Assembly (NCBI GenBank): GCA_977862235.1
Contig: OZ374558.1
Coordinates: 2,542,001-2,606,000, forward strand
Direction: 5' to 3'
DNA length: 64,000 nucleotides
DNA from: Dudresnaya verticillata
Taxonomy: Eukaryota
The notes beneath the pieces are model-generated. The model was not told the origin of the DNA. It made no database searches and saw nothing but the letters and a program-made list of their open reading frames with translations. Positions 9,486 to 64,000 of the stretch are shown here, in pieces. Position numbers and translations under genes: made by a program. Each line of letters begins with the position of its first letter. Position 1 is the stretch's first letter.

Positions 9486-9486
9486 G

Positions 9487-38262: not shown

Positions 38263-38279
38263 AACGGGCGTCTTCGCCT

Positions 38280-40724: not shown

Positions 40725-40795
40725 CGTGTCTCGGATAGAAACGAATTACGAATAAATGCGAAACTTCGGGACCACGTTCTAGGTCGGGAGACCAG

Positions 40796-42781: not shown

Positions 42782-43561
42782 ATGTTTGCAGCGAGCAAGC
42801 GCTCCCGGTTTTCTGTTTCTTCAGATTACAAAAAAGACGGTGTTGGTTACGGTAAGAGACATCTTACGACTCGTAGAGCCCATGATGACAAACCTTCCAA
42901 GGAGGAATCTCTTCAAGCTCCCGAAGGGCATCATGGACCCTATCGCTATGTTACGACTGCTAATGACTTAGTAAGTGCTGTTAAGAGGACAGAAGTGTCA
43001 CAAGACGTTTCGAGCCGCCGATATGAAAACTTGTTCGCGCTAAGAAATGTTCGCGGAAGAGAAGATTTTCCGTACTTCCGTCCTTGCTTTTTGGCGTCAC
43101 TATCTGCTGAAGAAGTGGAAAAGCTTTCACTTATAACCCGAAAATCCCTTTCGGGAAAGTTCGCTGACGCTAGAGAAACCGGCAACGAATGGAGCGTTGT
43201 TAGCCACATAAGTTTCGCAGATTTAGAGCCTCTTCTGTCAATATATATCTCAGACATTGCCAAGTTCGTGGGCACCAGAGCTATTCATCTCAACCGTGTC
43301 GTCCGAATGAGCACTAGAATTCAAACTTGGCCAGCGAAAGAGCTAAAGAATTTCAAATCCATGATGAAGACTGACTTGAATTCTTGGAAACTGAAAGGAA
43401 TGATTAGGAAGAAGCGTATTGGCGTTGCTGGAGACCCTTTTATGCGAATCCAACAAGTCTTTGAGAGAGTCAGGAATGAGGTACAGGAGCACAATCTCTC
43501 TGGAATACATGACAAAATTGAGAACGGACTCCGCAACGAGCTTACCCTTAAATATCCGTAA
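42782..43561 (+). CDS. Hypothetical 259-aa protein with a divergent RWP-RK-like domain
   Basis: Open frame from the first ATG; ISFADLEPLLSIYISDIAKFVGTRAIHLNRVVRMSTRIQTWPAKELK follows the RWP-RK spacing pattern. Confidence 0.55.
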   Translation: MFAASKRSRFSVSSDYKKDGVGYGKRHLTTRRAHDDKPSKEESLQAPEGHHGPYRYVTTANDLVSAVKRTEVSQDVSSRRYENLFALRNVRGREDFPYFRPCFLASLSAEEVEKLSLITRKSLSGKFADARETGNEWSVVSHISFADLEPLLSIYISDIAKFVGTRAIHLNRVVRMSTRIQTWPAKELKNFKSMMKTDLNSWKLKGMIRKKRIGVAGDPFMRIQQVFERVRNEVQEHNLSGIHDKIENGLRNELTLKYP

Positions 43562-44779: not shown

Positions 44780-46230
44780 GACTCAGCCTGATCCACCCTC
44801 GAAACGACCCAGTGCATGCCAGTTGAACCCTTAAACTGGTATGTCTACAACACAACCCACATCTTCTGTGCCTCGCAAATATCCGTGCTACAACTCGTGA
44901 CTTCAGATGTTCTATGTCTCGCGCTCTTCCGCATAGACACAACATCAACAGTTATGGACAGAAAGAGCTTCGCACTGTAGCACATTGTCACAATTGCGCC
45001 TTCCAATAGCCTCGTCCAAATAGACCATTCCTCCAATCCGGTCCAATCCGCATACATGCCCGTCCACCGAGCGCACGTGTTACGCTAGCCCCTCCGCTGC
45101 GTCCCTTTCCACGATCCCCGCATCCGAATGGCGCCGTGTCCAAAACATCACCGCACCCAACCCGCAAGTCCATGCGCTCCTAGTCGGGCTTTCTCAGAGC
45201 CGCGGCCCCAATTTCCTCTATAGATCTCGGTTGATGAGCTCGCTACCCTACCCTCCTGGCTCAAATTCGTTCTCTGCAATTCCCAAGTAGAACATTTCTT
45301 CTAAAACTGAACACGCAAAGCTCAGCTTCCGTAGTCCCATATTCTCGATACCGTTCATGCTTCATGATCGTCGCACGAAAGATGTAAGAAATCAGTCCCA
45401 CTTATCCAGAGCGCATCGCACTCAAAATCTAGTCTTCGCAGGGCGTTAGCTTGGACCGCCCAGATCAGCCGCCAGGCGCTTCCAAGATCTCGAGATCTGT
45501 CTCGAGAGTGTTTGATGATCAGTGTTTTCACTGCATTCGAAAAAGGTCCCTCTCTCTCTGCCTCATAGCCAGAAAGCCTGCTCATCAAACCAGGCGCCAG
45601 CTTCAGAATCTTTCCACGCCGCGGTACAACGGCGTCAAGCCCTACGCGGCCGATGAAAAGCCCCCGTTTATGGCACTGCACGTTTTGTCTCGGTCATGGA
45701 GCTCCCCTCAACAGCCCGCGGCCTGCTCGCCATCCGGGTGAAGTCTCGACGGCGCAGCGCTTGGACGGACTGCTGCGCAGCGTAGCAGTCGTATGGGTAG
45801 GGGGTAACGCGCAGCGACCGGTTGCGTGGCCGACTCTGCGTGCCTGGCAGGCTGGCGGCGCGGCGCCACTGCTGGGGTCTCATCGAGCGCAATGCACCCA
45901 CAGACACGTGCAATTCGGGGTTCGGCCTCAGCGCAGTTCCCAAAATCCGTGAGCGGATCAATGCTCTCCACCCGAAATCCGTCCAATCAACACTCGCACA
46001 AGAACCGGTACGACGCTGGGCGGCGCTGATTGGCTGTGAAACCCTCAATTACGACAACCAATCGAATCCACCGTTTTCTCCAATTCAGCCGGCGGCCAGA
46101 GTCTCTTTTCAGCTTCGTCCGCCTATTGACTACCACCCGCATCGCCTCTTAGCACACCCTGCCTGTGCGCTGCCCTTCCTCCAGCGCCAGAGCCGCTTGA
46201 GAGCATCACCGCCGTTCTCCGCAAGTCCCT
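44780..46230 (-). repeat. Degenerate dispersed repeat, copy 2 (inverted)
   Basis: Colinear reverse-complement blocks of ~21700-23225. Confidence 0.8.
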
Positions 46231-48189
46231 CTCGAATCATTAGGGCAGCCCCCATCAACAGTTGCGCCCCGGAACAATCTGCTCTGCCATGAAGCCTGAC
46301 CCGGCACCGTCGAGCCGCCCGCCGATCCGTGCTACTCCTCCGCAGCAGCTCGAGGAGCCGTTGGTGGAGAAATCTGTGCAAGCACCCACGTTGACTCCCG
46401 TTCAGCAGATCCCCGCAGAACTTCCGATACCACTGCAGGGAGCAATTGGGGCAAGCCCCGCAGGTCCGCTCGTGAGTGCAATGGAGTCGTCGACGTCAGA
46501 AATGCCAAAGAATTCGCAGAATAATCTCGTTGGCGATGCTGAAGAAGCCTTGCCGTGCCCTACATGCTGTGAAACCACCAATTCTGGATGTCTGCAGAAC
46601 TGTGGGTTATGCAACCAAATGGAATGCAATCGATGCCGCAGGAAATGCCTCTCCGTCTGTTTAGATCTCGGAGGTTCTCTGAGTTTGTCGTATTAAGATG
46701 TTGTCGGATTGGTGACGTGCGCACCTCCAAACGAAGCTCCAGGCTCACCCAAGTGACTTTTGTCTTGGTGTCAAAGCCTATTCCGCGATAGCCCACTTGC
46801 TTGCAAACTGGAGTATTGCATTGCTGCTGGTTCCTGGAACAAGAAGGTCATCAAGTAGTATAGCGGGACTTCACGAATAACTGTAAGCCTTTTGTGCTCC
46901 TAGGAGATGAGTGTGCCGACGGTTGATGGCCTTCGCTTCTGCAGTTTCCGCTTGGGATTCTGTTGCAAGTACGGTAACCATCGAATAAAGTCCCCCCATC
47001 TCTTGCATCAATGTGTCTGTCTTGTCCGTCTGTTAGCAGCAAACTCAATAAAACGGCGACAAGTTCAAGTGGGAGTGATATTCCGGAGAGGCCAAGGGGA
47101 GCTAAATAGCAAACTCGAAAGGCCCAACCACTAATCCAGCACTAGCCAAGGTGTACGAAAGCACAGAAACTAAATGTTGCGATTCCCACAAATCCCGTGA
47201 AAACAACCCCGCCTATTTCGACTCACCTCATGCTAAGGGCATGTACTGAAGGGAATCAATTCCCCCGCTTATCTCTGAACTTCTGTAGCAATCGAGGAGA
47301 CCAGTCTCGAGGCGGCGGGGCATGGTGCGGTGGAGCATCGAAAGAGGAAAATGGTGGGGACAGAAGGATGCAGTGTTCACCTGTTCACGTAAAGGATCCG
47401 TTGCACTCACGCACTGAAACAAAACCCTTGTTTGATTCGAGGACAAGTAAGGGGGTCTGAACTTTGGCCAGACATACAATACAAACCCTGTAAGAGTCCA
47501 AACTCAATGCCGAATTCTTCGCAGGCTCCCCACAGTTCTGCGTTGTGTCTCGGACGATCTTGCTGAACAGGTCTCCAGCATAGTGCTGGGAGAGACCAAT
47601 ACCGCACGCGACTCCGCAGCTGCCTGAAATAGCAAAATTGTACGCAGCACTCTAGCCATGAAAGGTCCCCATCTTCATCTTCTTCTAGCCAGGAAAAATA
47701 AGGAAAAGGCAGCTGGACAGTTTTGTCTCTCGCGGGTGGCGAAGGCCGGAAATACGGGGGGCTTGCAGAGCTTGGCTCCCACGCGGAGTGCACACGCTCT
47801 CCATGCCTCCTGGCGCCTTACGCAACTCCCGTATTCCATGACGACTCGTCATTGCCGAGGGGCGCCCCCCATCCGCCTCGAACTGGGCCCGTTCCTGTCT
47901 CGGAGCACCTGGGCTCACAAGGAGGCTTGTCGTGTTAGAACCCTGGGGTAGCTGCTGCATGGTGACGGATGGCATGCGGCCTGGTCGCAGAGCGTCACCC
48001 TCAAGAGTACCGTCGAGCGGCGTCACATGGGGTTGTTTCAGGTTGCTCATTCGGCGCCAGGGCGAGCATGTATGCTCGCCCTGGCGCATGCTCGCATACG
48101 GCTACACATTACGATCAGCGCGAGTTGCGACCTGTTTTGGAGTTGGCGTATCACTTTTTGAGTGCGATTTGTTTCGGTGGTGTCGTGGA

Positions 48190-49225
48190 AGGTCAGGCAC
48201 AGCATCAAGAGCGAGCAGAGAAATTTTGAAATTGGCTACCGGGTCCCCCGTTTTCTTATGTTGGGTGGGAGGCCAACGCTGTTCGAAGTCTAGATTTTGA
48301 TTGCAATGCGTTCTAGGGAAGTAGGACTGATTCCCTAGATCTTCTTCTATTGCGACACATATACGGTATTGAGAATAAGGGACCACGGCAGGGGGACTTA
48401 GCGTGTTCAATGCTAGAAGACATCTTCTACATGGATATAGCCGAGAGCAAATTTCGAGAAAAAGGATAGGGTAGCGACCTCATCAATCAAGGGGATGAGA
48501 GTGGGGCTTGGGAGAACGTTGTATTTACGTTGAGATGTCAATTGGGTAAAACGCATACCGCGACGCTAGCAAAACTCTTTCAGAAGATGCGTTAGTCTAA
48601 AGCGAGAGCATGCCACAACGACGGTGTTGGGAAAACGCATGAACCGCAAATCAAACCGAGGGAATGCTCCGTAGTATGCTGCGGTTTCGAAGGCAGAAGG
48701 AACATGACTAAAGATTAGGAGAGCTGGAGATTACTTACTGCCAGTTGGTGCATAACGCACACACACGCACAATCCGAAGAGTGTCAGCTATGACAACTTG
48801 AAGGTGGCTGAGGCTGGGTCTAACAAGACGCAATTGGCGGCGACGGGTGTCACGGAGGGGAGGTTCGCTGGGATGATGGGATGATGCTGTGTTAGGAATG
48901 CGGGCCTCGGAAGAACGGCAGCCGGAGTTCTGGGAGGGGCTGACTGGGCAAGCACGGGCTTGCGGGTTGGATGTGCTTTTCCGTTGACGCGACTCGAGCG
49001 TGAGATTGGTGGAAGCGGTGGAAACTGGTGATGGATTGCTGGTGGGGCAGAGTAAAAGGTAGGTTAAGCCTGGTCGACACGGATGTGGCTGGCGCAACAG
49101 CGTTCACGCGAAGAGGCACGCGCGCGCATGTCGCAGAGTATGGGATGTCGAGGACGTTGGAGGAGTGGCTCAAGTGATGGTAAACACTGGGTCGTTTCGA
49201 GGGTCAATCGGGCTGGGCTGAGATG
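48190..49225 (+). repeat. Degenerate dispersed repeat, copy 3 (more diverged)
   Basis: GTAGGACTGATTCCCTA, TGCTAGAAGACAT and CTGGGTCGTTTCGAGGGT blocks. Confidence 0.6.
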
Positions 49226-51486
49226 GTGGCGTTTACAGGTTACTTACTCTGAGGGTTGGCGGGTTGTGGTGTGAAGGTTTGGCAAGGATGAGCAACGTGT
49301 GTTGAACAAGCTTTGCTCGGGATCACTTGCGAGGCTCAATCGTGTGGTAAGTCGCTCTCCTCGATAAGGCATCAAAGCCTAAAAGGCGTTCACACTCAAC
49401 TGTGGCACGGCCGCTCTGAGCGCGATACTGTACATAATGTGCCGCTGCATATATTGCACAAACACGACTGTGGAGTGGTTTTCTTCTAGAGCAACAACAT
49501 TTCCCGGTATGCACCGAAAAGTAAATTGAAAAAACGCATTGAATTGTGTTGCAGCACCGGCGGAGTGTTACGAGATTCTGGAGTTTCTGGAGAGCCCTCT
49601 GGATGGCTCTAGATGCCACGTGTAGCCGTCTCTTAGGTCACCTCCAGAAGGCCCACGTCGCGAGTGGCCATGCAATAAGTCTTCCTTCTGCTCCCCACAC
49701 CAATGACCCCGGGCTGTAATTCTTATCTTACAGTATCACTGTAAGAAAGACATTACAGCATTAATAGTAACAGTAATTCTGGCGCCCCACGCGAACAATT
49801 ACATTGCCCACCGCAATTCACCCTCCCCGAATGTAATTGCACGGATTCACCCTGAGCTCCGCCGCTCTCAAACCACAAGCACAACCCGACGCCTCCCAAC
49901 CTCCACGCGCAGCTCGCGTGCACACCGTACCCGGCTCCCCGCCCACCGCCCGGCTCCCGCACCCCTCCCCCGCCCCGCGCCCACAATGAAGAATCGCCGC
50001 GTGCGGCGCAAGTCCACCGCGGACTGCCAAGCCCACAGCTCGCCGCGCGGCCGTGGAGCGCTTGCGCTGCGAGCAACCTGCCGCCTTCTCGCCACTTGAA
50101 CTAACCGCATTCGGGTCAAGCCCCACCTTCTCCCGCCCGCTCACTCGACGCGACAACATTCCCTACTGCCTGCGTCGCGCTCCGCAGCCCGCGCTCCACG
50201 CAAACTGCCTGCTTTGTCGACCGCACGCGCTGCCTGGTCCCGACCCCGAACGCCTGCCAAGCGTGGGCCCGGGCGCCTGGGCATGCGCTGCATTCCGACA
50301 AGCGCCGCCGTCCGCCCCCTCGCCTCGCTGCGTCAGCGTCAAGCGCTGCCGCTCCGCTTCCCCACTGCAACTGCAATGTACTGCAGCAATTCGCCCGCCT
50401 GGTACCGAAGGCGCGCCGGGCATCTCTGGCGTAGGCATGCGACCATTGCATTACCGTCACGTATCCCCTCTTTTACTCACACGGCAACGGATGTCAATTC
50501 AAGTCTGTTCCAAGTATGCTTTGCGCCTTGTGCAGCACTGCGGCTGGCTCGGCCTACGTGCGCATCGTGCGCATCACCATCTCGCCACCCGGCGCGCCTC
50601 CGACGGTCAACACAACCAGGAGAATGCACATCCCCTTCTGCTGCCCGCATGCGTCACGCAAGTGGAGAAGCTACTGGCAGTCCAGGTTGCTACAATCACT
50701 TCAGTTCTGCGGAGTAACGGGGTGCATGTATCGCCCCGTCGCGGCGTAGCGATCAAGAATCACCACGTTGGCTTTGGCGGGAGCGAACAGCCAAGTCTTT
50801 GCATCGGGTGATTTGCACTCTGCGGTGCGCTGAAGCTCAACTGCCCACGTACTGGTCGGCATGCCGATACCGCGCGTACGTCCGTGAATCAACTCACCGT
50901 GGAAGATGCATCAATGCCCGCTGGTTGCACTAGGGACGCGAATGGAGAAGCTACTGACATGCCCAAGTTGCAGCAGAAGTCAGATTTACCGAGGGCGAAT
51001 TGTGCCGGCAGTTGTTCATTTCCCGTCAGGCATCATCTACGTACCTCGGACGAGCACGGCAGGTGAAGTCTTTGTTCCGTCCATGCTGACACGTCAAGTT
51101 ACCACAATCAGGGCATTTCCGCCGAGAGCGACAATGTACAGACAGTCAGGGTTATCAGGCGTCACACCATCACGACGACAAGTGAAGTCTAATGACTTCA
51201 GCTATCCTCGCAACGCATGCACGGGGGCTCATGTGTCGCATGCGCCTCAACCTTCCGACACAGAGTGCTCCGCCTTGAATCGATACAACCGATAATGCAC
51301 ATCATCATCTCCTGCGTGCATCAATGACGCAGAGGGAGAAGCTGCTGACACGCTGTGTCGCTATAGTCAATGCAATTCAGGGTTCTGAGACGGCTCGGCA
51401 CGCGGAACCGACACAACGAGGAATGCACCTACCGAGACCGCAGTCGCCCTCGTCTTGCGATCGAATCGACGCCTCCACGACAATAG

Positions 51487-51493
51487 TATAAAT
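51487..51493 (+). promoter_or_regulatory. TATA box of array copy 1; equivalents at 54556, 57658, 60754 and 63850
   Basis: TATAAAT or TATAAAG about 140 nt before the ATG, conserved between diverged promoters. Confidence 0.7.
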
Positions 51494-51626
51494 ACCCTCC
51501 TCGCCGGCGCTGACAACAACATCTTCCTACATCCTTGAGCAACACGAAGTGACATCATCATCCATACAAGAATCCCGGCAACGCTAATCGCCGTCTCTCT
51601 TACTGCGTTACCCCAGCTAACACGCT

Positions 51627-53483
51627 ATGAGTCGGCGCTTTGCCTGGGCGGTTCTGCCGTTCACACTGGTGCTGCTACTGCAGTTCTTGCAACTAGCCAA
51701 CGCCGGTGATGCGGTCGCCAATGTTGAAGCTGTGCGTGCTGGTGTTCAAGTAGATGTCGGTGCCGGTGGTGGTAAGCCGAACACAAACAAGGAGGCTTCC
51801 GAAAACCCAAATGTGGCTTCCGTCCATCTCCACAACGAGGGAGGCGATGAAGAGCCTGTCGTCGACGAGGGCGATGAGGAAGAAGATGAGCTGGAAGAGA
51901 AGATGATCGGCGACGTGGAACACCTTGAAGAGGATGAGGATGAAGACGTCGAGGACGATGAGGAAGATGAGATCGAGGGTGTGTTGCAAGATGGAGAAGG
52001 CAGTTTAGAAGAAGTTGCCGACCGTGAGGATGACGACGACGAATTGTCTGAAGATTCTGTGGACGAGGAGGACGTTGATGATCTCCTTGATGATGAGAGT
52101 GTGCATAATGACGAGGATACGCTGGCCGAAGAGATCGACACTGGCCTCATGGAAGAGGATAGCGAGGAAGGCGGAGAAGAGAAGCCGGATATTGTGGACG
52201 AATCTTCGAAAGGATGGAGGGGATGGCGCCGAGAGTGCCGGAGGTGCCATTTCTCGTCACAATGCAGGCGCGGTCTGAAGTGCTGGCGTAGGAAATGTGT
52301 GATCAACAATGCGAGGTTAAGGTTGCGTTGCTTCCGAAACCACTGCCAGCGGTGTTCCAGGACGCATCACTGCCGACCCGGGCTCACGTGCCGGTGGGGA
52401 AAGTGTATTGTCAACAAGCCCGGCCATTCGCATCGCTGCTTCCGCCCTCCCCCGCGTCCAAGGAGCTACTATAAGGCTGACTGCGTACGGTGTTCGGCGA
52501 GTAACGAGTGCAGGAGCCGACGTTGTTTCCGGGCCGGAACGAGGTGGGCGCGTTGTGCGAGAGACGTCTGGTGGTACAGAAAGTGCTTTCTGAAGAAGGA
52601 GTGCGCACCGTGCAAGTTGAGCAAGGAGTGTAAGAGTGGAAAGTGCTGGAAAAAGCGTTGTGTGAATGTGAGGAAGGTGCGCGGTAGGAAGATTACGGAT
52701 CCTACTTCACTGCGCAAGTGCTTTGGGCAGGTGGGCAAGTGTGGATTCTGCAAGTCCACGCGGGACTGCAAGGGGAAGCTGGTGTGCAAAGCAGGGACGG
52801 GGCGTTCGAAGCGGGCAAGGTGCGCAGAGCCGATGGGTGAAGGTAAGCGTTGTCATGATCCGTGCTGGGCATGCAAGAGGGGCCTTAGGTGTAATGGGAA
52901 GACATGCGAGCGCCCGCGAGTGCCGTTTTGTGGAAAGTGCCGACGTACTAAGGACTGCTCGTCTGGGATGGTGTGCAAATTCGCGAGGAGGGGTGACCCG
53001 TGGGGACGTTGCGCGAAGCGTATGGATGTCGGTAAGAGCTGTCGTGACCTGTGCTGGGCGTGCAAGGGCGGGCTGTTTTGTAAGAATGGCAAGGTCTGCA
53101 GCAAGCGTGGAGAGAAATGTGCGTGGTGCTCGAAGCACTGGCATTGCAAGCAGGGTCTTCGTTGCAAGAAGAAGCCCGGAGCTAAGGAAGGGAAGTGTGC
53201 GCAGCCGCGGGGCGAGGGGTCTCCTTGCCATGATGACTGCTGGACGTGTAAACACAGGCTGGAGTGCAGGAACGGCAAGGTATGCAAGCCACCGCGCAAG
53301 GGCCAGTGCGGACATTGCAAGGTTGATGACGACTGCAAGGGGAAGCTTGTTTGCAAGGTGAAGGGTAAATTTGGGAAGTGTGCGAAGCCGAACGGTGTTG
53401 GTAAGCCGTGTCGTGATCCGTGCTGGGCGTGTGAGAAACACCTTGTGTGCAACAAGTGGGGCAAGTGTGCGTACCCGTATTAG
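51627..53483 (+). CDS. Secreted acidic/cysteine-rich cationic repeat protein, copy 1
   Basis: Hydrophobic signal peptide (..ANA/GD), D/E tract, 64 Cys in 8 modules; intronless. Confidence 0.92.
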   Translation: MSRRFAWAVLPFTLVLLLQFLQLANAGDAVANVEAVRAGVQVDVGAGGGKPNTNKEASENPNVASVHLHNEGGDEEPVVDEGDEEEDELEEKMIGDVEHLEEDEDEDVEDDEEDEIEGVLQDGEGSLEEVADREDDDDELSEDSVDEEDVDDLLDDESVHNDEDTLAEEIDTGLMEEDSEEGGEEKPDIVDESSKGWRGWRRECRRCHFSSQCRRGLKCWRRKCVINNARLRLRCFRNHCQRCSRTHHCRPGLTCRWGKCIVNKPGHSHRCFRPPPRPRSYYKADCVRCSASNECRSRRCFRAGTRWARCARDVWWYRKCFLKKECAPCKLSKECKSGKCWKKRCVNVRKVRGRKITDPTSLRKCFGQVGKCGFCKSTRDCKGKLVCKAGTGRSKRARCAEPMGEGKRCHDPCWACKRGLRCNGKTCERPRVPFCGKCRRTKDCSSGMVCKFARRGDPWGRCAKRMDVGKSCRDLCWACKGGLFCKNGKVCSKRGEKCAWCSKHWHCKQGLRCKKKPGAKEGKCAQPRGEGSPCHDDCWTCKHRLECRNGKVCKPPRKGQCGHCKVDDDCKGKLVCKVKGKFGKCAKPNGVGKPCRDPCWACEKHLVCNKWGKCAYPY

Positions 53484-53706
53484 GTAATGAATCGGGTTGC
53501 GAGAGATAGGGGAAGGTAATTTGTTTACGAGATGCTTCACTGCTAGGAACCTTGTGTGAGCATGGAGTGAGCGAATCTGATATACCTTGCGCACTATTAG
53601 AAATGAGGGCTACCTGGTCTGTTAGAAGACGGGTTTGAGCAGACATTGCAGCGTTTGCAAACGCCTAGTCTTGATAAAGAAACTTCAGTACGCAGCGTGT
53701 ACGCAG

Positions 53707-53710
<4 letters not shown>

Positions 53711-53740
<30 letters not shown>
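53711..53740. repeat. (GA)15 microsatellite
   Basis: Read directly. Confidence 0.95.
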
Positions 53741-53744
<4 letters not shown>

Positions 53745-54698
53745 AGAGAAAGCGGATCTCGTGTTTTGTCAACGGAGCTCAATTTGTTAAACGGGCAATA
53801 GGCGTTTATGCAGAGGAAAGACTACATTACATACGTGTTAAGCGGAAAGACCGGAGGGTCAACGCGTCGGCACGAATCGGAGCTTCGGGCTGCTCAGTCA
53901 GACTTTGGCCAAATCATTCAATGCAACGTACTGCAACGAAGCACTATGGTGCGCCTGTTCATTTTCGTAAAGTCTCTCGCAAGCTTGTTTTGAGATGAGC
54001 AGTTCCGCTCACCGTAGCTCGCCTCAAAAGTCGATAACGAGCGATCTCGCCCGGAGTCAAGAAGACCAGGGCCAGGAATGAGCATCATCACCCCTGGCGC
54101 ACATGAGCGATGCGAGGAGAGAAGCTGCTGACACGCCAAGTTCCTACAATCAATTTATTTTCGTAAGGGTGCGGTTGTGCGGACAGTCGTTGCATTGCTA
54201 TCAAACATCACCTCTTTACCTCGGCCCACAGCCATAAAGACAAAGGCCGTGCCACCAGTCGTTGTCTCCCAATAGTGCAATGGAGCTGAATTGCACTGCG
54301 TACGCCTCAAGCTCGCTGACACGGATCGCTTCTTAGTGAATCGATGCGACCAGGAATGGCCTTTGCCGCGCCAGCACCGGTCAAAGATGGCACAAATGAG
54401 GACGCTATCGATTCGTCATGTCATGTACAGTCAATGCAATTCAGGGCTGGCTCCGAGGAGGCATCTGGACGCGGAATCGACACGACTTGGAATGCAACTG
54501 CCGGCGCCGCAGTCGCCCTCATCTTGATATCGAAGTGACGCCTCCGCGAGAAGGGTATAAAGACTGGTCCTCTCCGAGCCGTAACCACAACGTCTTCCCC
54601 GCAAGCGCGCAAAGCAACGCGAAGCAATCGCCGCGAAACAAATTCGCAGCAGCTCACCGGCATATTGCTTCTACCTCATCTCGCTGATCTCAAACACG

Positions 54699-56555
54699 AT
54701 GAGTCGGCGCTTTGCCTGGGCGGTTCTGCCGTTCACACTGGTGCTGCTACTGCAGTTCTTGCAACTAGCCAACGCCGGTGATGCGGTCGCCAATGTTGAA
54801 GCTGTGCGTGCTGGTGTTCAAGTAGATGTCGGTGCCGGTGGTGGTAAGCCGAACACAAACAAGGAGGCTTCCGAAAACCCAAATGTGGCTTCCGTCCATC
54901 TCCACAACGAGGGAGGCGATGAAGAGCCTGTCGTCGACGAGGGCGATGAGGAAGAAGATGAGCTGGAAGAGAAGATGATCGGCGACGTGGAACACCTTGA
55001 AGAGGATGAGGATGAAGACGTCGAGGACGATGAGGAAGATGAGATCGAGGGTGTGTTGCAAGATGGAGAAGGCAGTTTAGAAGAAGTTGCCGACCGTGAG
55101 GATGACGACGACGAATTGTCTGAAGATTCTGTGGACGAGGAGGACGTTGATGATCTCCTTGATGATGAGAGTGTGCATAATGACGAGGATACGCTGGCCG
55201 AAGAGATCGACACTGGCCTCATGGAAGAGGATAGCGAGGAAGGCGGAGAAGAGAAGCCGGATATTGTGGACGAATCTTCGAAAGGATGGAGGGGATGGCG
55301 CCGAGAGTGCCGGAGGTGCCATTTCTCGTCACAATGCAGGCGCGGTCTGAAGTGCTGGCGTAGGAAATGTGTGATCAACAATGCGAGGTTAAGGTTGCGT
55401 TGCTTCCGAAACCACTGCCAGCGGTGTTCCAGGACGCATCACTGCCGACCCGGGCTCACGTGCCGGTGGGGAAAGTGTATTGTCAACAAGCCCGGCCATT
55501 CGCATCGCTGCTTCCGCCCTCCCCCGCGTCCAAGGAGCTACTATAAGGCTGACTGCGTACGGTGTTCGGCGAGTAACGAGTGCAGGAGCCGACGTTGTTT
55601 CCGGGCCGGAACGAGGTGGGCGCGTTGTGCGAGAGACGTCTGGTGGTACAGAAAGTGCTTTCTGAAGAAGGAGTGCGCACCGTGCAAGTTGAGCAAGGAG
55701 TGTAAGAGTGGAAAGTGCTGGAAAAAGCGTTGTGTGAATGTGAGGAAGGTGCGCGGTAGGAAGATTACGGATCCTACTTCACTGCGCAAGTGCTTTGGGC
55801 AGGTGGGCAAGTGTGGATTCTGCAAGTCCACGCGGGACTGCAAGGGGAAGCTGGTGTGCAAAGCAGGGACGGGGCGTTCGAAGCGGGCAAGGTGCGCAGA
55901 GCCGATGGGTGAAGGTAAGCGTTGTCATGATCCGTGCTGGGCATGCAAGAGGGGTCTTAGGTGTAATGGGAAGACATGCGAGCGCCCGCGAGTGCCGTTT
56001 TGTGGAAAGTGCCGACGTACTAAGGACTGCTCGTCTGGGATGGTGTGCAAATTCGCGAGGAGGGGTGACCCGTGGGGACGTTGCGCGAAGCGTATGGATG
56101 TCGGTAAGAGCTGTCGTGACCTGTGCTGGGCGTGCAAGGGCGGGCTGTTTTGTAAGAATGGCAAGGTCTGCAGCAAGCGTGGAGAGAAATGTGCGTGGTG
56201 CTCGAAGCACTGGCATTGCAAGCAGGGTCTTCGTTGCAAGAAGAAGCCCGGAGCTAAGGAAGGGAAGTGTGCGCAGCCGCGGGGCGAGGGGTCTCCTTGC
56301 CATGATGACTGCTGGACGTGTAAACACAGGCTGGAGTGCAGGAACGGCAAGGTATGCAAGCCACCGCGCAAGGGCCAGTGCGGACATTGCAAGGTTGATG
56401 ACGACTGCAAGGGGAAGCTTGTTTGCAAGGTGAAGGGTAAATTTGGGAAGTGTGCGAAGCCGAACGGTGTTGGTAAGCCGTGTCGTGATCCGTGCTGGGC
56501 GTGTGAGAAACACCTTGTGTGCAACAAGTGGGGCAAGTGTGCGTACCCGTATTAG
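54699..56555 (+). CDS. Cys-rich secreted protein, copy 2
   Basis: Identical 618-aa translation. Confidence 0.92.
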   Translation: MSRRFAWAVLPFTLVLLLQFLQLANAGDAVANVEAVRAGVQVDVGAGGGKPNTNKEASENPNVASVHLHNEGGDEEPVVDEGDEEEDELEEKMIGDVEHLEEDEDEDVEDDEEDEIEGVLQDGEGSLEEVADREDDDDELSEDSVDEEDVDDLLDDESVHNDEDTLAEEIDTGLMEEDSEEGGEEKPDIVDESSKGWRGWRRECRRCHFSSQCRRGLKCWRRKCVINNARLRLRCFRNHCQRCSRTHHCRPGLTCRWGKCIVNKPGHSHRCFRPPPRPRSYYKADCVRCSASNECRSRRCFRAGTRWARCARDVWWYRKCFLKKECAPCKLSKECKSGKCWKKRCVNVRKVRGRKITDPTSLRKCFGQVGKCGFCKSTRDCKGKLVCKAGTGRSKRARCAEPMGEGKRCHDPCWACKRGLRCNGKTCERPRVPFCGKCRRTKDCSSGMVCKFARRGDPWGRCAKRMDVGKSCRDLCWACKGGLFCKNGKVCSKRGEKCAWCSKHWHCKQGLRCKKKPGAKEGKCAQPRGEGSPCHDDCWTCKHRLECRNGKVCKPPRKGQCGHCKVDDDCKGKLVCKVKGKFGKCAKPNGVGKPCRDPCWACEKHLVCNKWGKCAYPY

Positions 56556-56778
56556 GTAATGAATCGGGTTGCGAGAGATAGGGGAAGGTAATTTGTTTAC
56601 GAGATGCTTCACTGCTAGGAACCTTGTGTGAGCATGGAGTGAGCGAATCTGATATACCTTGCGCACTATTAGAAATGAGGGCTACCTGGTCTGTTAGAAG
56701 ACGGGTTTGAGCAGACATTGCAGCGTTTGCAAACGCCTAGTCTTGATAAAGAAACTTCAGTACGCAGCGTGTACGCAG

Positions 56779-56782
<4 letters not shown>

Positions 56783-56842
<60 letters not shown>
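56783..56842. repeat. (GA)30 microsatellite
   Basis: Read directly; explains the unit period. Confidence 0.95.
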
Positions 56843-56846
<4 letters not shown>

Positions 56847-57800
56847 AGAGAAAGCGGATCTCGTGTTTTGTCAACGGAGCTCAATTTGTTAAACGGGCAA
56901 TAGGCGTTTATGCAGAGGAAAGACTACATTACATACGTGTTAAGCGGAAAGACCGGAGGGTCAACGCGTCGGCACGAATCGGAGCTTCGGGCTGCTCAGT
57001 CAGACTTTGGCCAAATCATTCAATGCAACGTACTGCAACGAAGCACTATGGTGCGCCTGTTCATTTTCGTAAAGTCTCTCGCAAGCTTGTTTTGAGATGA
57101 GCAGTTCCGCTCACCGTAGCTCGCCTCAAAAGTCGATAACGAGCGATCTCGCCCGGAGTCAAGAAGACCAGGGCCAGGAATGAGCATCATCACCCCTGGC
57201 GCACATGAGCGATGCGAGGAGAGAAGCTGCTGACACGCCAAGTTCCTACAATCAATTTATTTTCGTAAGGGTGCGGTTGTGCGGACAGTCGTTGCATTGC
57301 TATCAAACATCACCTCTTTACCTCGGCCCACAGCCATAAAGACAAAGGCCGTGCCACCAGTCGTTGTCTCCCAATAGTGCAATGGAGCTGAATTGCACTG
57401 CGTACGCCTCAAGCTCGCTGACACGGATCGCTTCTTAGTGAATCGATGCGACCAGGAATGGCCTTTGCCGCGCCAGCACCGGTCAAAGATGGCACAAATG
57501 AGGACGCTATCGATTCGTCATGTCATGTACAGTCAATGCAATTCAGGGCTGGCTCCGAGGAGGCATCTGGACGCGGAATCGACACGACTTGGAATGCAAC
57601 TGCCGGCGCCGCAGTCGCCCTCATCTTGATATCGAAGTGACGCCTCCGCGAGAAGGGTATAAAGACTGGTCCTCTCCGAGCCGTAACCACAACGTCTTCC
57701 CCGCAAGCGCGCAAAGCAACGCGAAGCAATCGCCGCGAAACAAATTCGCAGCAGCTCACCGGCATATTGCTTCTACCTCATCTCGCTGATCTCAAACACG

Positions 57801-59657
57801 ATGAGTCGGCGCTTTGCCTGGGCGGTTCTGCCGTTCACACTGGTGCTGCTACTGCAGTTCTTGCAACTAGCCAACGCCGGTGATGCGGTCGCCAATGTTG
57901 AAGCTGTGCGTGCTGGTGTTCAAGTAGATGTCGGTGCCGGTGGTGGTAAGCCGAACACAAACAAGGAGGCTTCCGAAAACCCAAATGTGGCTTCCGTCCA
58001 TCTCCACAACGAGGGAGGCGATGAAGAGCCTGTCGTCGACGAGGGCGATGAGGAAGAAGATGAGCTGGAAGAGAAGATGATCGGCGACGTGGAACACCTT
58101 GAAGAGGATGAGGATGAAGACGTCGAGGACGATGAGGAAGATGAGATCGAGGGTGTGTTGCAAGATGGAGAAGGCAGTTTAGAAGAAGTTGCCGACCGTG
58201 AGGATGACGACGACGAATTGTCTGAAGATTCTGTGGACGAGGAGGACGTTGATGATCTCCTTGATGATGAGAGTGTGCATAATGACGAGGATACGCTGGC
58301 CGAAGAGATCGACACTGGCCTCATGGAAGAGGATAGCGAGGAAGGCGGAGAAGAGAAGCCGGATATTGTGGACGAATCTTCGAAAGGATGGAGGGGATGG
58401 CGCCGAGAGTGCCGGAGGTGCCATTTCTCGTCACAATGCAGGCGCGGTCTGAAGTGCTGGCGTAGGAAATGTGTGATCAACAATGCGAGGTTAAGGTTGC
58501 GTTGCTTCCGAAACCACTGCCAGCGGTGTTCCAGGACGCATCACTGCCGACCCGGGCTCACGTGCCGGTGGGGAAAGTGTATTGTCAACAAGCCCGGCCA
58601 TTCGCATCGCTGCTTCCGCCCTCCCCCGCGTCCAAGGAGCTACTATAAGGCTGACTGCGTACGGTGTTCGGCGAGTAACGAGTGCAGGAGCCGACGTTGT
58701 TTCCGGGCCGGAACGAGGTGGGCGCGTTGTGCGAGAGACGTCTGGTGGTACAGAAAGTGCTTTCTGAAGAAGGAGTGCGCACCGTGCAAGTTGAGCAAGG
58801 AGTGTAAGAGTGGAAAGTGCTGGAAAAAGCGTTGTGTGAATGTGAGGAAGGTGCGCGGTAGGAAGATTACGGATCCTACTTCACTGCGCAAGTGCTTTGG
58901 GCAGGTGGGCAAGTGTGGATTCTGCAAGTCCACGCGGGACTGCAAGGGGAAGCTGGTGTGCAAAGCAGGGACGGGGCGTTCGAAGCGGGCAAGGTGCGCA
59001 GAGCCGATGGGTGAAGGTAAGCGTTGTCATGATCCGTGCTGGGCATGCAAGAGGGGTCTTAGGTGTAATGGGAAGACATGCGAGCGCCCGCGAGTGCCGT
59101 TTTGTGGAAAGTGCCGACGTACTAAGGACTGCTCGTCTGGGATGGTGTGCAAATTCGCGAGGAGGGGTGACCCGTGGGGACGTTGCGCGAAGCGTATGGA
59201 TGTCGGTAAGAGCTGTCGTGACCTGTGCTGGGCGTGCAAGGGCGGGCTGTTTTGTAAGAATGGCAAGGTCTGCAGCAAGCGTGGAGAGAAATGTGCGTGG
59301 TGCTCGAAGCACTGGCATTGCAAGCAGGGTCTTCGTTGCAAGAAGAAGCCCGGAGCTAAGGAAGGGAAGTGTGCGCAGCCGCGGGGCGAGGGGTCTCCTT
59401 GCCATGATGACTGCTGGACGTGTAAACACAGGCTGGAGTGCAGGAACGGCAAGGTATGCAAGCCACCGCGCAAGGGCCAGTGCGGACATTGCAAGGTTGA
59501 TGACGACTGCAAGGGGAAGCTTGTTTGCAAGGTGAAGGGTAAATTTGGGAAGTGTGCGAAGCCGAACGGTGTTGGTAAGCCGTGTCGTGATCCGTGCTGG
59601 GCGTGTGAGAAACACCTTGTGTGCAACAAGTGGGGCAAGTGTGCGTACCCGTATTAG
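57801..59657 (+). CDS. Cys-rich secreted protein, copy 3
   Basis: Identical 618-aa translation. Confidence 0.92.
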   Translation: MSRRFAWAVLPFTLVLLLQFLQLANAGDAVANVEAVRAGVQVDVGAGGGKPNTNKEASENPNVASVHLHNEGGDEEPVVDEGDEEEDELEEKMIGDVEHLEEDEDEDVEDDEEDEIEGVLQDGEGSLEEVADREDDDDELSEDSVDEEDVDDLLDDESVHNDEDTLAEEIDTGLMEEDSEEGGEEKPDIVDESSKGWRGWRRECRRCHFSSQCRRGLKCWRRKCVINNARLRLRCFRNHCQRCSRTHHCRPGLTCRWGKCIVNKPGHSHRCFRPPPRPRSYYKADCVRCSASNECRSRRCFRAGTRWARCARDVWWYRKCFLKKECAPCKLSKECKSGKCWKKRCVNVRKVRGRKITDPTSLRKCFGQVGKCGFCKSTRDCKGKLVCKAGTGRSKRARCAEPMGEGKRCHDPCWACKRGLRCNGKTCERPRVPFCGKCRRTKDCSSGMVCKFARRGDPWGRCAKRMDVGKSCRDLCWACKGGLFCKNGKVCSKRGEKCAWCSKHWHCKQGLRCKKKPGAKEGKCAQPRGEGSPCHDDCWTCKHRLECRNGKVCKPPRKGQCGHCKVDDDCKGKLVCKVKGKFGKCAKPNGVGKPCRDPCWACEKHLVCNKWGKCAYPY

Positions 59658-59880
59658 GTAATGAATCGGGTTGCGAGAGATAGGGGAAGGTAATTTGTTT
59701 ACGAGATGCTTCACTGCTAGGAACCTTGTGTGAGCATGGAGTGAGCGAATCTGATATACCTTGCGCACTATTAGAAATGAGGGCTACCTGGTCTGTTAGA
59801 AGACGGGTTTGAGCAGACATTGCAGCGTTTGCAAACGCCTAGTCTTGATAAAGAAACTTCAGTACGCAGCGTGTACGCAG

Positions 59881-59884
<4 letters not shown>

Positions 59885-59938
<54 letters not shown>
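59885..59938. repeat. (GA)27 microsatellite
   Basis: Read directly. Confidence 0.95.
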
Positions 59939-59942
<4 letters not shown>

Positions 59943-60896
59943 AGAGAAAGCGGATCTCGTGTTTTGTCAACGGAGCTCAATTTGTTAAACGGGCAATAGG
60001 CGTTTATGCAGAGGAAAGACTACATTACATACGTGTTAAGCGGAAAGACCGGAGGGTCAACGCGTCGGCACGAATCGGAGCTTCGGGCTGCTCAGTCAGA
60101 CTTTGGCCAAATCATTCAATGCAACGTACTGCAACGAAGCACTATGGTGCGCCTGTTCATTTTCGTAAAGTCTCTCGCAAGCTTGTTTTGAGATGAGCAG
60201 TTCCGCTCACCGTAGCTCGCCTCAAAAGTCGATAACGAGCGATCTCGCCCGGAGTCAAGAAGACCAGGGCCAGGAATGAGCATCATCACCCCTGGCGCAC
60301 ATGAGCGATGCGAGGAGAGAAGCTGCTGACACGCCAAGTTCCTACAATCAATTTATTTTCGTAAGGGTGCGGTTGTGCGGACAGTCGTTGCATTGCTATC
60401 AAACATCACCTCTTTACCTCGGCCCACAGCCATAAAGACAAAGGCCGTGCCACCAGTCGTTGTCTCCCAATAGTGCAATGGAGCTGAATTGCACTGCGTA
60501 CGCCTCAAGCTCGCTGACACGGATCGCTTCTTAGTGAATCGATGCGACCAGGAATGGCCTTTGCCGCGCCAGCACCGGTCAAAGATGGCACAAATGAGGA
60601 CGCTATCGATTCGTCATGTCATGTACAGTCAATGCAATTCAGGGCTGGCTCCGAGGAGGCATCTGGACGCGGAATCGACACGACTTGGAATGCAACTGCC
60701 GGCGCCGCAGTCGCCCTCATCTTGATATCGAAGTGACGCCTCCGCGAGAAGGGTATAAAGACTGGTCCTCTCCGAGCCGTAACCACAACGTCTTCCCCGC
60801 AAGCGCGCAAAGCAACGCGAAGCAATCGCCGCGAAACAAATTCGCAGCAGCTCACCGGCATATTGCTTCTACCTCATCTCGCTGATCTCAAACACG

Positions 60897-62753
60897 ATGA
60901 GTCGGCGCTTTGCCTGGGCGGTTCTGCCGTTCACACTGGTGCTGCTACTGCAGTTCTTGCAACTAGCCAACGCCGGTGATGCGGTCGCCAATGTTGAAGC
61001 TGTGCGTGCTGGTGTTCAAGTAGATGTCGGTGCCGGTGGTGGTAAGCCGAACACAAACAAGGAGGCTTCCGAAAACCCAAATGTGGCTTCCGTCCATCTC
61101 CACAACGAGGGAGGCGATGAAGAGCCTGTCGTCGACGAGGGCGATGAGGAAGAAGATGAGCTGGAAGAGAAGATGATCGGCGACGTGGAACACCTTGAAG
61201 AGGATGAGGATGAAGACGTCGAGGACGATGAGGAAGATGAGATCGAGGGTGTGTTGCAAGATGGAGAAGGCAGTTTAGAAGAAGTTGCCGACCGTGAGGA
61301 TGACGACGACGAATTGTCTGAAGATTCTGTGGACGAGGAGGACGTTGATGATCTCCTTGATGATGAGAGTGTGCATAATGACGAGGATACGCTGGCCGAA
61401 GAGATCGACACTGGCCTCATGGAAGAGGATAGCGAGGAAGGCGGAGAAGAGAAGCCGGATATTGTGGACGAATCTTCGAAAGGATGGAGGGGATGGCGCC
61501 GAGAGTGCCGGAGGTGCCATTTCTCGTCACAATGCAGGCGCGGTCTGAAGTGCTGGCGTAGGAAATGTGTGATCAACAATGCGAGGTTAAGGTTGCGTTG
61601 CTTCCGAAACCACTGCCAGCGGTGTTCCAGGACGCATCACTGCCGACCCGGGCTCACGTGCCGGTGGGGAAAGTGTATTGTCAACAAGCCCGGCCATTCG
61701 CATCGCTGCTTCCGCCCTCCCCCGCGTCCAAGGAGCTACTATAAGGCTGACTGCGTACGGTGTTCGGCGAGTAACGAGTGCAGGAGCCGACGTTGTTTCC
61801 GGGCCGGAACGAGGTGGGCGCGTTGTGCGAGAGACGTCTGGTGGTACAGAAAGTGCTTTCTGAAGAAGGAGTGCGCACCGTGCAAGTTGAGCAAGGAGTG
61901 TAAGAGTGGAAAGTGCTGGAAAAAGCGTTGTGTGAATGTGAGGAAGGTGCGCGGTAGGAAGATTACGGATCCTACTTCACTGCGCAAGTGCTTTGGGCAG
62001 GTGGGCAAGTGTGGATTCTGCAAGTCCACGCGGGACTGCAAGGGGAAGCTGGTGTGCAAAGCAGGGACGGGGCGTTCGAAGCGGGCAAGGTGCGCAGAGC
62101 CGATGGGTGAAGGTAAGCGTTGTCATGATCCGTGCTGGGCATGCAAGAGGGGTCTTAGGTGTAATGGGAAGACATGCGAGCGCCCGCGAGTGCCGTTTTG
62201 TGGAAAGTGCCGACGTACTAAGGACTGCTCGTCTGGGATGGTGTGCAAATTCGCGAGGAGGGGTGACCCGTGGGGACGTTGCGCGAAGCGTATGGATGTC
62301 GGTAAGAGCTGTCGTGACCTGTGCTGGGCGTGCAAGGGCGGGCTGTTTTGTAAGAATGGCAAGGTCTGCAGCAAGCGTGGAGAGAAATGTGCGTGGTGCT
62401 CGAAGCACTGGCATTGCAAGCAGGGTCTTCGTTGCAAGAAGAAGCCCGGAGCTAAGGAAGGGAAGTGTGCGCAGCCGCGGGGCGAGGGGTCTCCTTGCCA
62501 TGATGACTGCTGGACGTGTAAACACAGGCTGGAGTGCAGGAACGGCAAGGTATGCAAGCCACCGCGCAAGGGCCAGTGCGGACATTGCAAGGTTGATGAC
62601 GACTGCAAGGGGAAGCTTGTTTGCAAGGTGAAGGGTAAATTTGGGAAGTGTGCGAAGCCGAACGGTGTTGGTAAGCCGTGTCGTGATCCGTGCTGGGCGT
62701 GTGAGAAACACCTTGTGTGCAACAAGTGGGGCAAGTGTGCGTACCCGTATTAG
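60897..62753 (+). CDS. Cys-rich secreted protein, copy 4
   Basis: Identical 618-aa translation. Confidence 0.92.
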   Translation: MSRRFAWAVLPFTLVLLLQFLQLANAGDAVANVEAVRAGVQVDVGAGGGKPNTNKEASENPNVASVHLHNEGGDEEPVVDEGDEEEDELEEKMIGDVEHLEEDEDEDVEDDEEDEIEGVLQDGEGSLEEVADREDDDDELSEDSVDEEDVDDLLDDESVHNDEDTLAEEIDTGLMEEDSEEGGEEKPDIVDESSKGWRGWRRECRRCHFSSQCRRGLKCWRRKCVINNARLRLRCFRNHCQRCSRTHHCRPGLTCRWGKCIVNKPGHSHRCFRPPPRPRSYYKADCVRCSASNECRSRRCFRAGTRWARCARDVWWYRKCFLKKECAPCKLSKECKSGKCWKKRCVNVRKVRGRKITDPTSLRKCFGQVGKCGFCKSTRDCKGKLVCKAGTGRSKRARCAEPMGEGKRCHDPCWACKRGLRCNGKTCERPRVPFCGKCRRTKDCSSGMVCKFARRGDPWGRCAKRMDVGKSCRDLCWACKGGLFCKNGKVCSKRGEKCAWCSKHWHCKQGLRCKKKPGAKEGKCAQPRGEGSPCHDDCWTCKHRLECRNGKVCKPPRKGQCGHCKVDDDCKGKLVCKVKGKFGKCAKPNGVGKPCRDPCWACEKHLVCNKWGKCAYPY

Positions 62754-62976
62754 GTAATGAATCGGGTTGCGAGAGATAGGGGAAGGTAATTTGTTTACGA
62801 GATGCTTCACTGCTAGGAACCTTGTGTGAGCATGGAGTGAGCGAATCTGATATACCTTGCGCACTATTAGAAATGAGGGCTACCTGGTCTGTTAGAAGAC
62901 GGGTTTGAGCAGACATTGCAGCGTTTGCAAACGCCTAGTCTTGATAAAGAAACTTCAGTACGCAGCGTGTACGCAG

Positions 62977-62980
<4 letters not shown>

Positions 62981-63034
<54 letters not shown>
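62981..63034. repeat. (GA)27 microsatellite
   Basis: Read directly. Confidence 0.95.
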
Positions 63035-63038
<4 letters not shown>

Positions 63039-63985
63039 AGAGAAAGCGGATCTCGTGTTTTGTCAACGGAGCTCAATTTGTTAAACGGGCAATAGGCGTT
63101 TATGCAGAGGAAAGACTACATTACATACGTGTTAAGCGGAAAGACCGGAGGGTCAACGCGTCGGCACGAATCGGAGCTTCGGGCTGCTCAGTCAGACTTT
63201 GGCCAAATCATTCAATGCAACGTACTGCAACGAAGCACTATGGTGCGCCTGTTCATTTTCGTAAAGTCTCTCGCAAGCTTGTTTTGAGATGAGCAGTTCC
63301 GCTCACCGTAGCTCGCCTCAAAAGTCGATAACGAGCGATCTCGCCCGGAGTCAAGAAGACCAGGGCCAGGAATGAGCATCATCACCCCTGGCGCACATGA
63401 GCGATGCGAGGAGAGAAGCTGCTGACACGCCAAGTTCCTACAATCAATTTATTTTCGTAAGGGTGCGGTTGTGCGGACAGTCGTTGCATTGCTATCAAAC
63501 ATCACCTCTTTACCTCGGCCCACAGCCATAAAGACAAAGGCCGTGCCACCAGTCGTTGTCTCCCAATAGTGCAATGGAGCTGAATTGCACTGCGTACGCC
63601 TCAAGCTCGCTGACACGGATCGCTTCTTAGTGAATCGATGCGACCAGGAATGGCCTTTGCCGCGCCAGCACCGGTCAAAGATGGCACAAATGAGGACGCT
63701 ATCGATTCGTCATGTCATGTACAGTCAATGCAATTCAGGGCTGGCTCCGAGGAGGCATCTGGACGCGGAATCGACACGACTTGGAATGCAACTGCCGGCG
63801 CCGCAGTCGCCCTCATCTTGATATCGAAGTGACGCCTCCGCGAGAAGGGTATAAAGACTGGTCCTCTCCGAGCCGTAACCACAACGTCTTCCCCGCAAGC
63901 GCGCAAAGCAACGCGAAGCAATCGCCGCGAAACAAATTCGCAGCAGCTCACCGGCATATTGCTTCTACCTCATCTCGCTGATCTC

Positions 63986-64000
63986 ATGATGAGTCGGCGC
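63986..64000 (+). CDS. Start of copy 5 (partial)
   Basis: ATG ATG AGT CGG CGC follows the same promoter as copies 2-4. Confidence 0.8.

Follow-up and report, generated by a model that had tools for sequence, protein, structure and literature searches.

A young tandem array of near-identical genes

The 64-kb window, the whole stretch of DNA analysed here, contains at least five near letter-identical copies of a likely red-algal gene for a Cys-rich protein, arranged head to tail with ATGs at 51627, 54699, 57801, 60897, and 63989. The repeating units are 3072, 3102, 3096, and 3092 bp long, and each consists of a CDS, a spacer, and the promoter of the next gene (Table 1). A tblastn search of the window with the protein returned four whole copies and nothing else, and the 3' edge of the homogenised tract lies beyond base 64000, where the array runs off the window. 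No homologue of the unit 1 3' flank was found to the left of the array, and an Rfam scan of 49000-58000 gave no matches.

Table 1 Features of the array and its upstream regions (positions in the window).
Feature	Position	Strand	Details
Degenerate module copies upstream of copy 1	50347..51290	+	Three clear (50615-50892, 50901-51074, 51084-51284), one weak (50347-50602)
Putative promoter/5' leader type A	51084..51626	+	Copy 1 only; 57-77% identical to type B
Best conserved promoter block	51365..51499	+	77% identity; ends in TATAAA 51487-51492 (-140); probable core promoter
CDS copy 1	51627..53483	+	Intronless, 618 aa; left edge of identical tract
Sole CDS difference	52883..52883	+	C in copy 1, T in copies 2-4; silent, Gly419
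Unit 1 3' flank	53484..54055	+	(AG)15 at 53710-53739
Putative promoter/5' leader type B before copy 2	54056..54698	+	TATAAA 54556-54561 (-143)
Unit 2	54699..57800	+	3102 bp: CDS 54699-56555, spacer with (AG)30 at 56782-56841, promoter B
Unit 3	57801..60896	+	3096 bp: CDS 57801-59657, spacer with (AG)27 at 59884-59937, promoter B
Unit 4	60897..63988	+	3092 bp: CDS 60897-62753, spacer with (AG)27 at 62980-63033, promoter B
Private change in unit 4 promoter B	63987	+	Hexamer removed; two in-frame ATGs result
CDS copy 5	63989..64000	+	First 12 bases, same as other copies

The four ~3.1-kb units, comprising CDS, 3' flank, and next promoter, were identical save for C52883, the length of (AG)n, and a few bases before the ATG of copy 5. 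Among the CDS copies we found one difference in 1857 nt, at the third position of Gly419, where copy 1 has C and copies 2, 3, and 4 have T, the single silent change that an earlier sequence-only reading had picked out. The four 1.2-kb spacers had no substitutions except directly before the copy 5 ATG, and carried (AG)n tracts of 15, 30, 27, and 27 repeats. Units thus differ by at most one substitution in ~3030 bp, less than the LTR pairs of the same window (2/853 and 7/851), which indicates that the array expansion is very young. C52883, the short (AG)15, and promoter type A are private to unit 1, while copy 5 has a private change in which five bases are replaced by one and a hexamer common to copies 1-4 is lost. 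The array, very young and at least five near-identical units long, begins on its left with copy 1. The proposal that homogenisation was limited to the CDS does not describe the window, since the 3' flank and the following promoter are identical as well, making the whole unit the identical tract.

Near-perfect identity of 3-kb units could also arise if collapse or polishing had overwritten a diverged first CDS with the array consensus, or the copy number could be wrong, and the odd bases of copy 5 do fall in the last 14 nt of the window, like a noisy contig end. We consider such an assembly artefact very unlikely. Copy 1 retains its private base, its (AG)n is far shorter than the others, and three (AG)n lengths occur among the units. 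The same assembly resolves LTRs that differ at 2/853 sites and two elements that are 98.8% alike, and promoter A is truly homologous and correctly spaced from its ATG, which a random misjoin would not produce.

The cysteine-rich product

The 618-aa product has a hydrophobic N-terminus with a predicted signal peptide at ~1-26 and is likely secreted. It has an acidic stretch at 73-192 (68 D/E of 120) and a Cys-rich basic part at 193-618 with 64 C, 118 K+R, and 12 CxxCx5Cx4-5C modules. Searches returned 86 relatives at E <= 0.001, some of which may match by their cysteines and nothing else; the nearest protein is 48% identical. A name was attached to 1 of the 22 relatives looked up, the uncharacterised Chondrus crispus protein XP_005714889.1 (39% identity, E 4.7e-88), which has the same CxxCx5Cx4-5C repeat module and is Lys/Arg-rich, but is without the acidic stretch; two cluster mates carried no name. 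Relatives in the Logan/JGI sets share the repeat module and the Lys/Arg richness, and P0001 also bears an acidic N-terminal stretch.

Pfam contained no family matching the window protein at E <= 1. Two of nine relatives scanned hit Dickkopf_N (PF04706)/EB module (PF01683) at 19-20 bits, below the cut-offs of 24-25, and we rejected membership in these families as no score rose above its curated cut-off. A model of the module reached pLDDT 94, and the 62-residue double module aligned to Dkk1 (Z 6.3, rmsd 3.8, 60 residues) and colipase (Z 5.5, rmsd 4.5, 65 residues), both below Z 8. Foldseek found no match at E <= 0.001 with the pLDDT 94 model, and a single-sequence fold (pLDDT 61) likewise had none at that threshold; the best ESM Atlas scores, 0.80 and 0.85, are leads only. 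Likeness to the Dickkopf CRD2/colipase fold and to cystine-knot peptides is best read as resemblance, not membership, and offers no clue to function.

Through promoter B the array would raise the dosage of a disulfide-rich, secreted polycation, and the acidic stretch likely masks the charge of this protein during export. Judging from composition and the weak fold match, the polycation would most likely bind sulfated wall polysaccharides, a suggestion to which we give about an even chance; action on microbes is possible and less probable.

Two upstream regions and an edge at the start codon

Copy 1 had been described as preceded by a region homologous to that of copies 2-5 yet strongly diverged from it, and our alignments agreed, at 57-77% identity. 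By zone, types A and B were 57% identical in the distal part (305 columns), 77% in the core from -262 to -128 (141 columns), and 58% from TATA to ATG (136 columns, 16 of them gap columns). The core block and the TATA-to-ATG stretch each beat 500/500 shuffles, and homology extends upstream to 51084, further than previously stated. All four motifs named earlier were present upstream of copies 1 and 2, including TATAAA at 51487 and 54556. Between TATA box and start codon both leaders are free of upstream ATGs, and a sigma-70 scan found no promoters, as expected for a eukaryote.

An upstream module of up to ~280 bp occurs once in the spacer, at 54065-54345. Its local alignments to the degenerate copies upstream of copy 1 scored z 14.7-18.7 for the three clear copies and z 3.8 for the weak one (200 shuffles). 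The promoter A core itself resembles the module (z 7.4-10.1), while the promoter B core scored z -0.2 against its own.

Promoter distances between A and B were 0.23-0.52 substitutions per site, which supports the old duplication proposed by the sequence-only reading, and on their alignment the two putative promoters are homologous and old. Two alleles placed in tandem were rejected as a source because a 23-43% promoter difference is too large. Strict identity starts at the A of the ATG (51627), just where it had been said to switch on. The last A/B difference falls in -3..-1, as either a 2-nt indel or a pair of substitutions, and the shared hexamer sits just upstream. Residual identity in the leader is flat towards the ATG (50-57% from -100 to -11), and this lack of a gradient indicates that the edge is long-standing.

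Had the CDS aged like the promoter, 78-133 synonymous differences would be expected over 390 synonymous sites, against the one observed. Purifying selection alone therefore cannot explain the CDS identity and was rejected, as synonymous sites have been homogenised too. We think it probable that copy 1 marks the left edge of an array built in two stages. An old tandem gene pair likely had its CDSs kept alike by gene conversion while the promoters drifted apart, and a very recent multiplication followed, likely by unequal crossing-over inside the identical CDSs. A misaligned crossover between CDS-A and CDS-B would duplicate exactly the CDS, 3' flank, and promoter B, so that every added copy would get promoter B and the first alone would keep promoter A. 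Purifying selection would keep the CDS indel-free and alignable, letting conversion tracts pass through, and the gapped, diverged leader would stop them at the ATG; the edge would form there with no need for selection on the edge itself.

Gene conversion is here inferred from one haplotype, and homogenisation may precede or follow the first extra copy. The earlier reading had offered conversion or crossover; both find support, probably as successive steps and not as alternatives, because a single crossover between un-homogenised paralogues must fall in the first 4-20 nt of 1857 (0.2-1%). Its view of one protein under two promoter types holds at the sequence level. Metagenome scans confirmed no related locus among 547 pattern matches (protein query), and none among 87 matches obtained with a two-sequence alignment.

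The two-stage origin gives no account of the pre-ATG change at copy 5, which we count against it. That change would fit a one-step chimera. Here one break or one template switch would have fused CDS-A, at its ATG or a few bases ahead of it, to promoter B from a downstream paralogue that had already diverged, and the new unit would then have multiplied; with its odd pre-ATG bases, copy 5 could be the B gene that donated the promoter. A switch from B to A near -8 predicts the hexamer in copies 1-4 and its absence in copy 5, and a chimera accounts for whole-unit identity without conversion. We nonetheless find this origin quite improbable, as the break would have to lie within ~4-20 nt of 1857-2400 nt of homology (0.2-1%) and be followed by a later 2-nt indel, and the 12 visible bases of copy 5 are the same as A.

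Conversion by reverse-transcribed mRNA overwriting the copies deserves mention in a genome rich in active LTR elements, the window itself containing young Ty3/gypsy-type elements with reverse transcriptase. It is extremely improbable: a copy templated by mRNA would contain the leader but neither promoter nor spacer, both of which are identical among units, and nothing requires it.

We modelled the position of the edge with a neutral toy model of homology-dependent conversion plus CDS constraint, with arbitrary parameters. Of 2000 runs, 393 met the observed conditions, and among these the edge lay on the ATG itself in 21, no more than 1 nt away in 43, no more than 3 nt away in 96, and no more than 10 nt away in 209. 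Hitting the ATG exactly is thus a ~5% outcome, with a median edge 6-11 nt upstream, and no run resembled the observation in 2/8 parameter sets and in 6/12 of another series. Since 96/393 runs came within 3 nt of the start codon, the edge calls for no special mechanism.

The observed edge is still sharper than the toy-model median, as would be expected if selection pins it, with A and B expressed differently (e.g. between tissues, under stress, or by phase of the life cycle) and conversion into the leader purged. This is compatible with the two-stage mechanism and adds a selective cause. The TATA box at -140/-143 and the 77% core are kept in both regions beside flanks of 57-58%, and neither leader has gained an ATG past the TATA, so both look maintained; the number of modules also differs between the two upstream regions. 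We regard edge-pinning selection as unlikely, however, as the neutral model gives the same edge in 5-24% of qualifying runs, and the three distinct promoters of HMA4 are reported to be about equally active (PMC3749932). Somewhat less likely again is the fuller proposal that selection keeps one secreted, polycationic knottin-like protein of red algae under two separately regulated promoters, e.g. for different life-cycle phases, and purges every tract that passes the start codon, the B copies having just been amplified for dosage with (AG)n aiding turnover.

Comparison with known arrays

If this fuller proposal were true, the locus would let selection on the boundary of concerted evolution be tested in nature to the exact base, and would open a way into an unnamed family of red-algal wall or defence proteins. 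Its value otherwise is modest and lies in being an intronless case of unusual clarity whose edge can be placed to the base, and in pointing to an unnamed Cys-rich family seemingly under fresh dosage change. The two leaders let copy-type-specific expression be read from ordinary RNA-seq.

By analogy the genome anatomy is ordinary: yeast, Arabidopsis halleri, mosquitoes, and Leishmania provide described cases of homogenised CDSs behind diverged promoters and of arrays whose first gene alone has a promoter of its own. The edge is as sharp as the sequence-only reading held, and less surprising than it was rated, given the toy model and these published parallels. In the parts of the literature accessible to us we found no case of such an array in the red-algal lineage.

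In yeast, HXT7/6 chimeras carry the HXT7 promoter, and ENA1 alone is known to have a distinct, inducible promoter. In S. cerevisiae, HXT6/HXT7 are 99.8% identical over a 1713 bp CDS and recombine (PMC3161820), and HXT7/6 has been amplified as a chimera by tandem duplication (PMC3150441). Adjacent genes, near-identical CDSs, and amplified chimeric copies make this pair similar to our locus, which differs in having at least five copies in the assembly and a secreted (predicted) Cys-rich product. The ENA1/ENA2/ENA5 (PMR2) array of S. cerevisiae is a parallel tandem array (PMC6262259, PMC7826275, PMC12157680); its copy-number variation has been shown in yeast, whereas the array here is read from one assembly. 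As in arrays of the ENA and HXT7/6 type, attributed to unequal crossover, we found head-to-tail units, a first gene with its own upstream region, and edge variants.

Concerted evolution of the HMA4/HXT6-7 type is matched by CDS identity far above that of the flanks and by homogenised synonymous sites. In the A. halleri HMA4 triplicate, CDSs are 99-99.3% alike by ectopic conversion and promoters are copy-specific (PMC3749932), and a model of conversion-mutation balance under CDS constraint yields homogenised CDSs with diverged flanks (10.1101/2025.10.29.685298). HMA4 has no copy-number variation, three distinct promoters, and introns, while our array has two promoter types, no introns, and identical spacers. 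Mosquito vitellogenin paralogues combine conserved CDSs with unique 5' promoter regions, and in Anopheles they form a head-to-tail array of 3 or 7 copies ascribed to unequal crossover (PMC2875236). Their tracts start 41-325 nt upstream of the ATG, whereas identity here starts at the ATG.

Array units and their promoters

The array contained five start codons and four whole copies of an intronless gene (618 aa each), with copy 5 truncated by the window end and copy 1 as the left edge. The coding sequence (CDS) of copy 1 differed from copies 2–4 at a single silent site (C52883 vs T), and strict identity between copy 1 and the others began with the A of the ATG, both as noted in the sequence-only reading. 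That reading confined the identical tract to the CDS. However, pairwise alignment also found 0 substitutions in the spacers of the four units, the bases directly before the copy 5 ATG excepted, so the identical tract is the whole 3.1-kb unit: CDS, 572-bp 3' flank, and the 643-bp promoter B found upstream of copies 2–5. The 3' edge of homogenisation lies beyond the window, and a CDS-limited nature is therefore not visible within it. The remaining inter-unit differences were (AG)n lengths of 15, 30, 27, and 27. Divergence between units (95% upper bound about 0.12–0.18% per site) was below that of the two youngest LTR pairs of the window (2/853 and 7/851 sites).

We consider it improbable that misassembly or consensus collapse produced this array, given the variants private to copy 1, the three microsatellite lengths among units, and the fact that the same assembly kept apart LTRs with just 2 differing sites. 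A change just before the copy 5 ATG (63987–63991) starts 14 bases before the window ends. It may reflect an error at a contig end and to that extent favors an artefact; alternatively, it could be a sign that copy 5 is the terminal or the original B gene. Here five bases are replaced by one, which results in two in-frame ATGs and the loss from copy 5 of a pre-ATG hexamer common to copies 1–4.

Promoter A, found upstream of copy 1 only, was homologous to the region before copies 2–5 from 51084 up to the ATG, though heavily diverged. Identity was 57% in the distal zone, 77% in the core block, which ends with the TATA box (promoter A, -140; promoter B, -143), and 58% from TATA to ATG, and both tested zones outscored 500/500 shuffles. 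The A–B distance was 0.23–0.52 substitutions per site. Retention of the core in both suggests that each promoter was functional for most of its history. The shared hexamer sits just upstream of a 2-nt indel near the ATG and could be a relic of conversion overshoot or an initiation context that has been conserved. Old, degenerate modules, each at most about 280 bp long, lay further upstream, with three clear and one weak copies before copy 1 (four or five modules in all) and one clear copy plus the core in promoter B. From this difference in number, the old duplication would have reached no further than the proximal portion of a modular upstream region, or else modules would have been lost from B.

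Proposed homogenisation and growth of the array

The tiny unit divergence set against the promoter distance records two very different ages. Purifying selection alone was rejected as the cause of CDS identity, since 78–133 synonymous differences were expected and 1 was observed; we thus infer conversion or repeated exchange between the CDSs, as in the earlier proposal.

The starting state would have been a tandem pair, pA-cdsA-tA-pB-cdsB-tB (p, promoter; t, 3' flank). By logic, a misaligned crossover between cdsA and cdsB would duplicate cds-tA-pB, the unit seen, and pass promoter B to every later copy. Homogenisation of cdsA and cdsB, before or after the crossover, would make copies 1 and 2 match from the first base. 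The one-step alternative, a crossover located between the ATG and the first mismatch downstream of it, would be a 0.2–1% event, as computed for 5–25% CDS divergence.

We simulated two paralogues with neutral flanks and a constrained, indel-free CDS, in which conversion tracts required a matched seed and had a set chance of ending at each mismatch (2000 runs, 8 parameter sets x 250). To qualify, a run had to show ≤1 difference across coding bases 1–1257 and ≥28% divergence in the leader. Of 393 qualifying runs, 21 had their left edge exactly at the ATG; 43 had it no more than 1 nt away, 96 no more than 3 nt, and 209 no more than 10 nt, and the medians lay 6–11 nt upstream of the ATG. Two of the eight sets yielded no qualifying run, and in a pilot 6/12 sets, all with strict mismatch stopping, never homogenised. 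Because the parameters were arbitrary, all that the simulation shows is that an edge on or beside the ATG is a natural result, its exact position being mildly lucky. A published model describes the same qualitative outcome, with the CDS in conversion-mutation balance while flanks diverge (10.1101/2025.10.29.685298).

Protein product and genomic surroundings

A hydrophobic stretch at residues 7–20, with none further on, suggests a signal peptide. Residues 73–192 included 68 acidic residues, and residues 193–618 contained 64 Cys, 118 Lys+Arg, and 12 CxxCx5Cx4-5C modules; an arginine pair preceding the Cys-rich part might be a processing site. A Pfam search of the protein matched no family. The closest relative, P0001, shared 48% identity across the Cys-rich part and likewise had 64 Cys and an acidic N-terminus. 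Another relative, P0002, had a Lys-rich N-terminal stretch before the same Cys modules, unlike the acidic one of P0001 and the window protein. The only relative with a name among the 22 looked up, an uncharacterised protein of Chondrus crispus (39% identity, E 4.7e-88), suggests a red-algal source. The last 252 residues, modelled from a 22-row alignment, gave a locally confident structure (pLDDT 94, pTM 0.58), with weak structural likeness to Dkk1 CRD2 (Z 6.3) and colipase (Z 5.5). Defensin-type precursors carry an acidic pro-piece that masks a cationic disulfide-rich domain, and the window protein may be built likewise. Binding of sulfated wall galactans would be the likeliest role, with an antimicrobial role ranked next.

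The window was transposon-rich and eukaryotic, and its two Ty3/gypsy-type copies were 98.8% identical across 7.3 kb.

Start codons, upstream modules, mobile elements, and other features of the window
Feature	Position	Details
Start codons, copies 1–5	51627, 54699, 57801, 60897, 63989	
Degenerate upstream modules	50347-51560; 54065-54630	copy 1 side; promoter B side
Short motif in upstream modules	50665, 50945, 51336; 54119	last once per spacer
Chromodomain Ty3/gypsy-type element, copy one	146-10339	LTRs 853 bp, 2 sites differ; 5-bp target duplication; young
Inverted LTR of same family	1-145 and 10340-10637	holds copy one
Chromodomain Ty3/gypsy-type element, copy two	32720-41646	LTRs differ at 7/851 sites; 5-bp target duplication
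ORFs of different chromo-integrase element	28656-32536	adjoin copy two
DDE_Tnp_1_7 transposase fragment	10898-11464	E 9e-07
Inverted pair	11285-12120 / 15069-15906	840 bp, 93% identity; overlaps DDE_Tnp_1_7 fragment
Old dispersed repeat	21749-23063, 44864-46168, 48272-48486	three pieces, both orientations, 70-74% identity
ORFs left of array	46289-46696; 42782-43561	135 aa (Cys-rich end); 259 aa; no Pfam match
DNA hairpin	49713-49760	isolated, strong (-16 kcal/mol, z -7.5, 0/200 shuffles); about 1.9 kb before copy 1; may be a transposon remnant

Comparison with known systems

The observation holds, and known processes explain it well. In yeast, HXT7/6 chimeras have the HXT7 promoter, and the ENA1 promoter is distinct from that of ENA2/5. 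The HXT6/HXT7 CDSs are described as 99.8% identical and recombining (PMC3161820), with chimeras amplified (PMC3150441). ENA is reported as an array of near-identical genes whose copy number varies, and one strain is described with a 3,885-bp fusion of ENA1 and ENA2 (PMC6262259, PMC7826275, PMC12157680). For HMA4, ectopic conversion is described as holding the CDS at 99-99.3% with copy-specific promoters (PMC3749932), and Leishmania beta-tubulins are reported to have concerted CDSs and distinct non-coding regions (PMC1533823). Mosquito vitellogenins, in arrays of 3 or 7, are described with unique promoters and tracts starting at -41 to -325 (PMC2875236).
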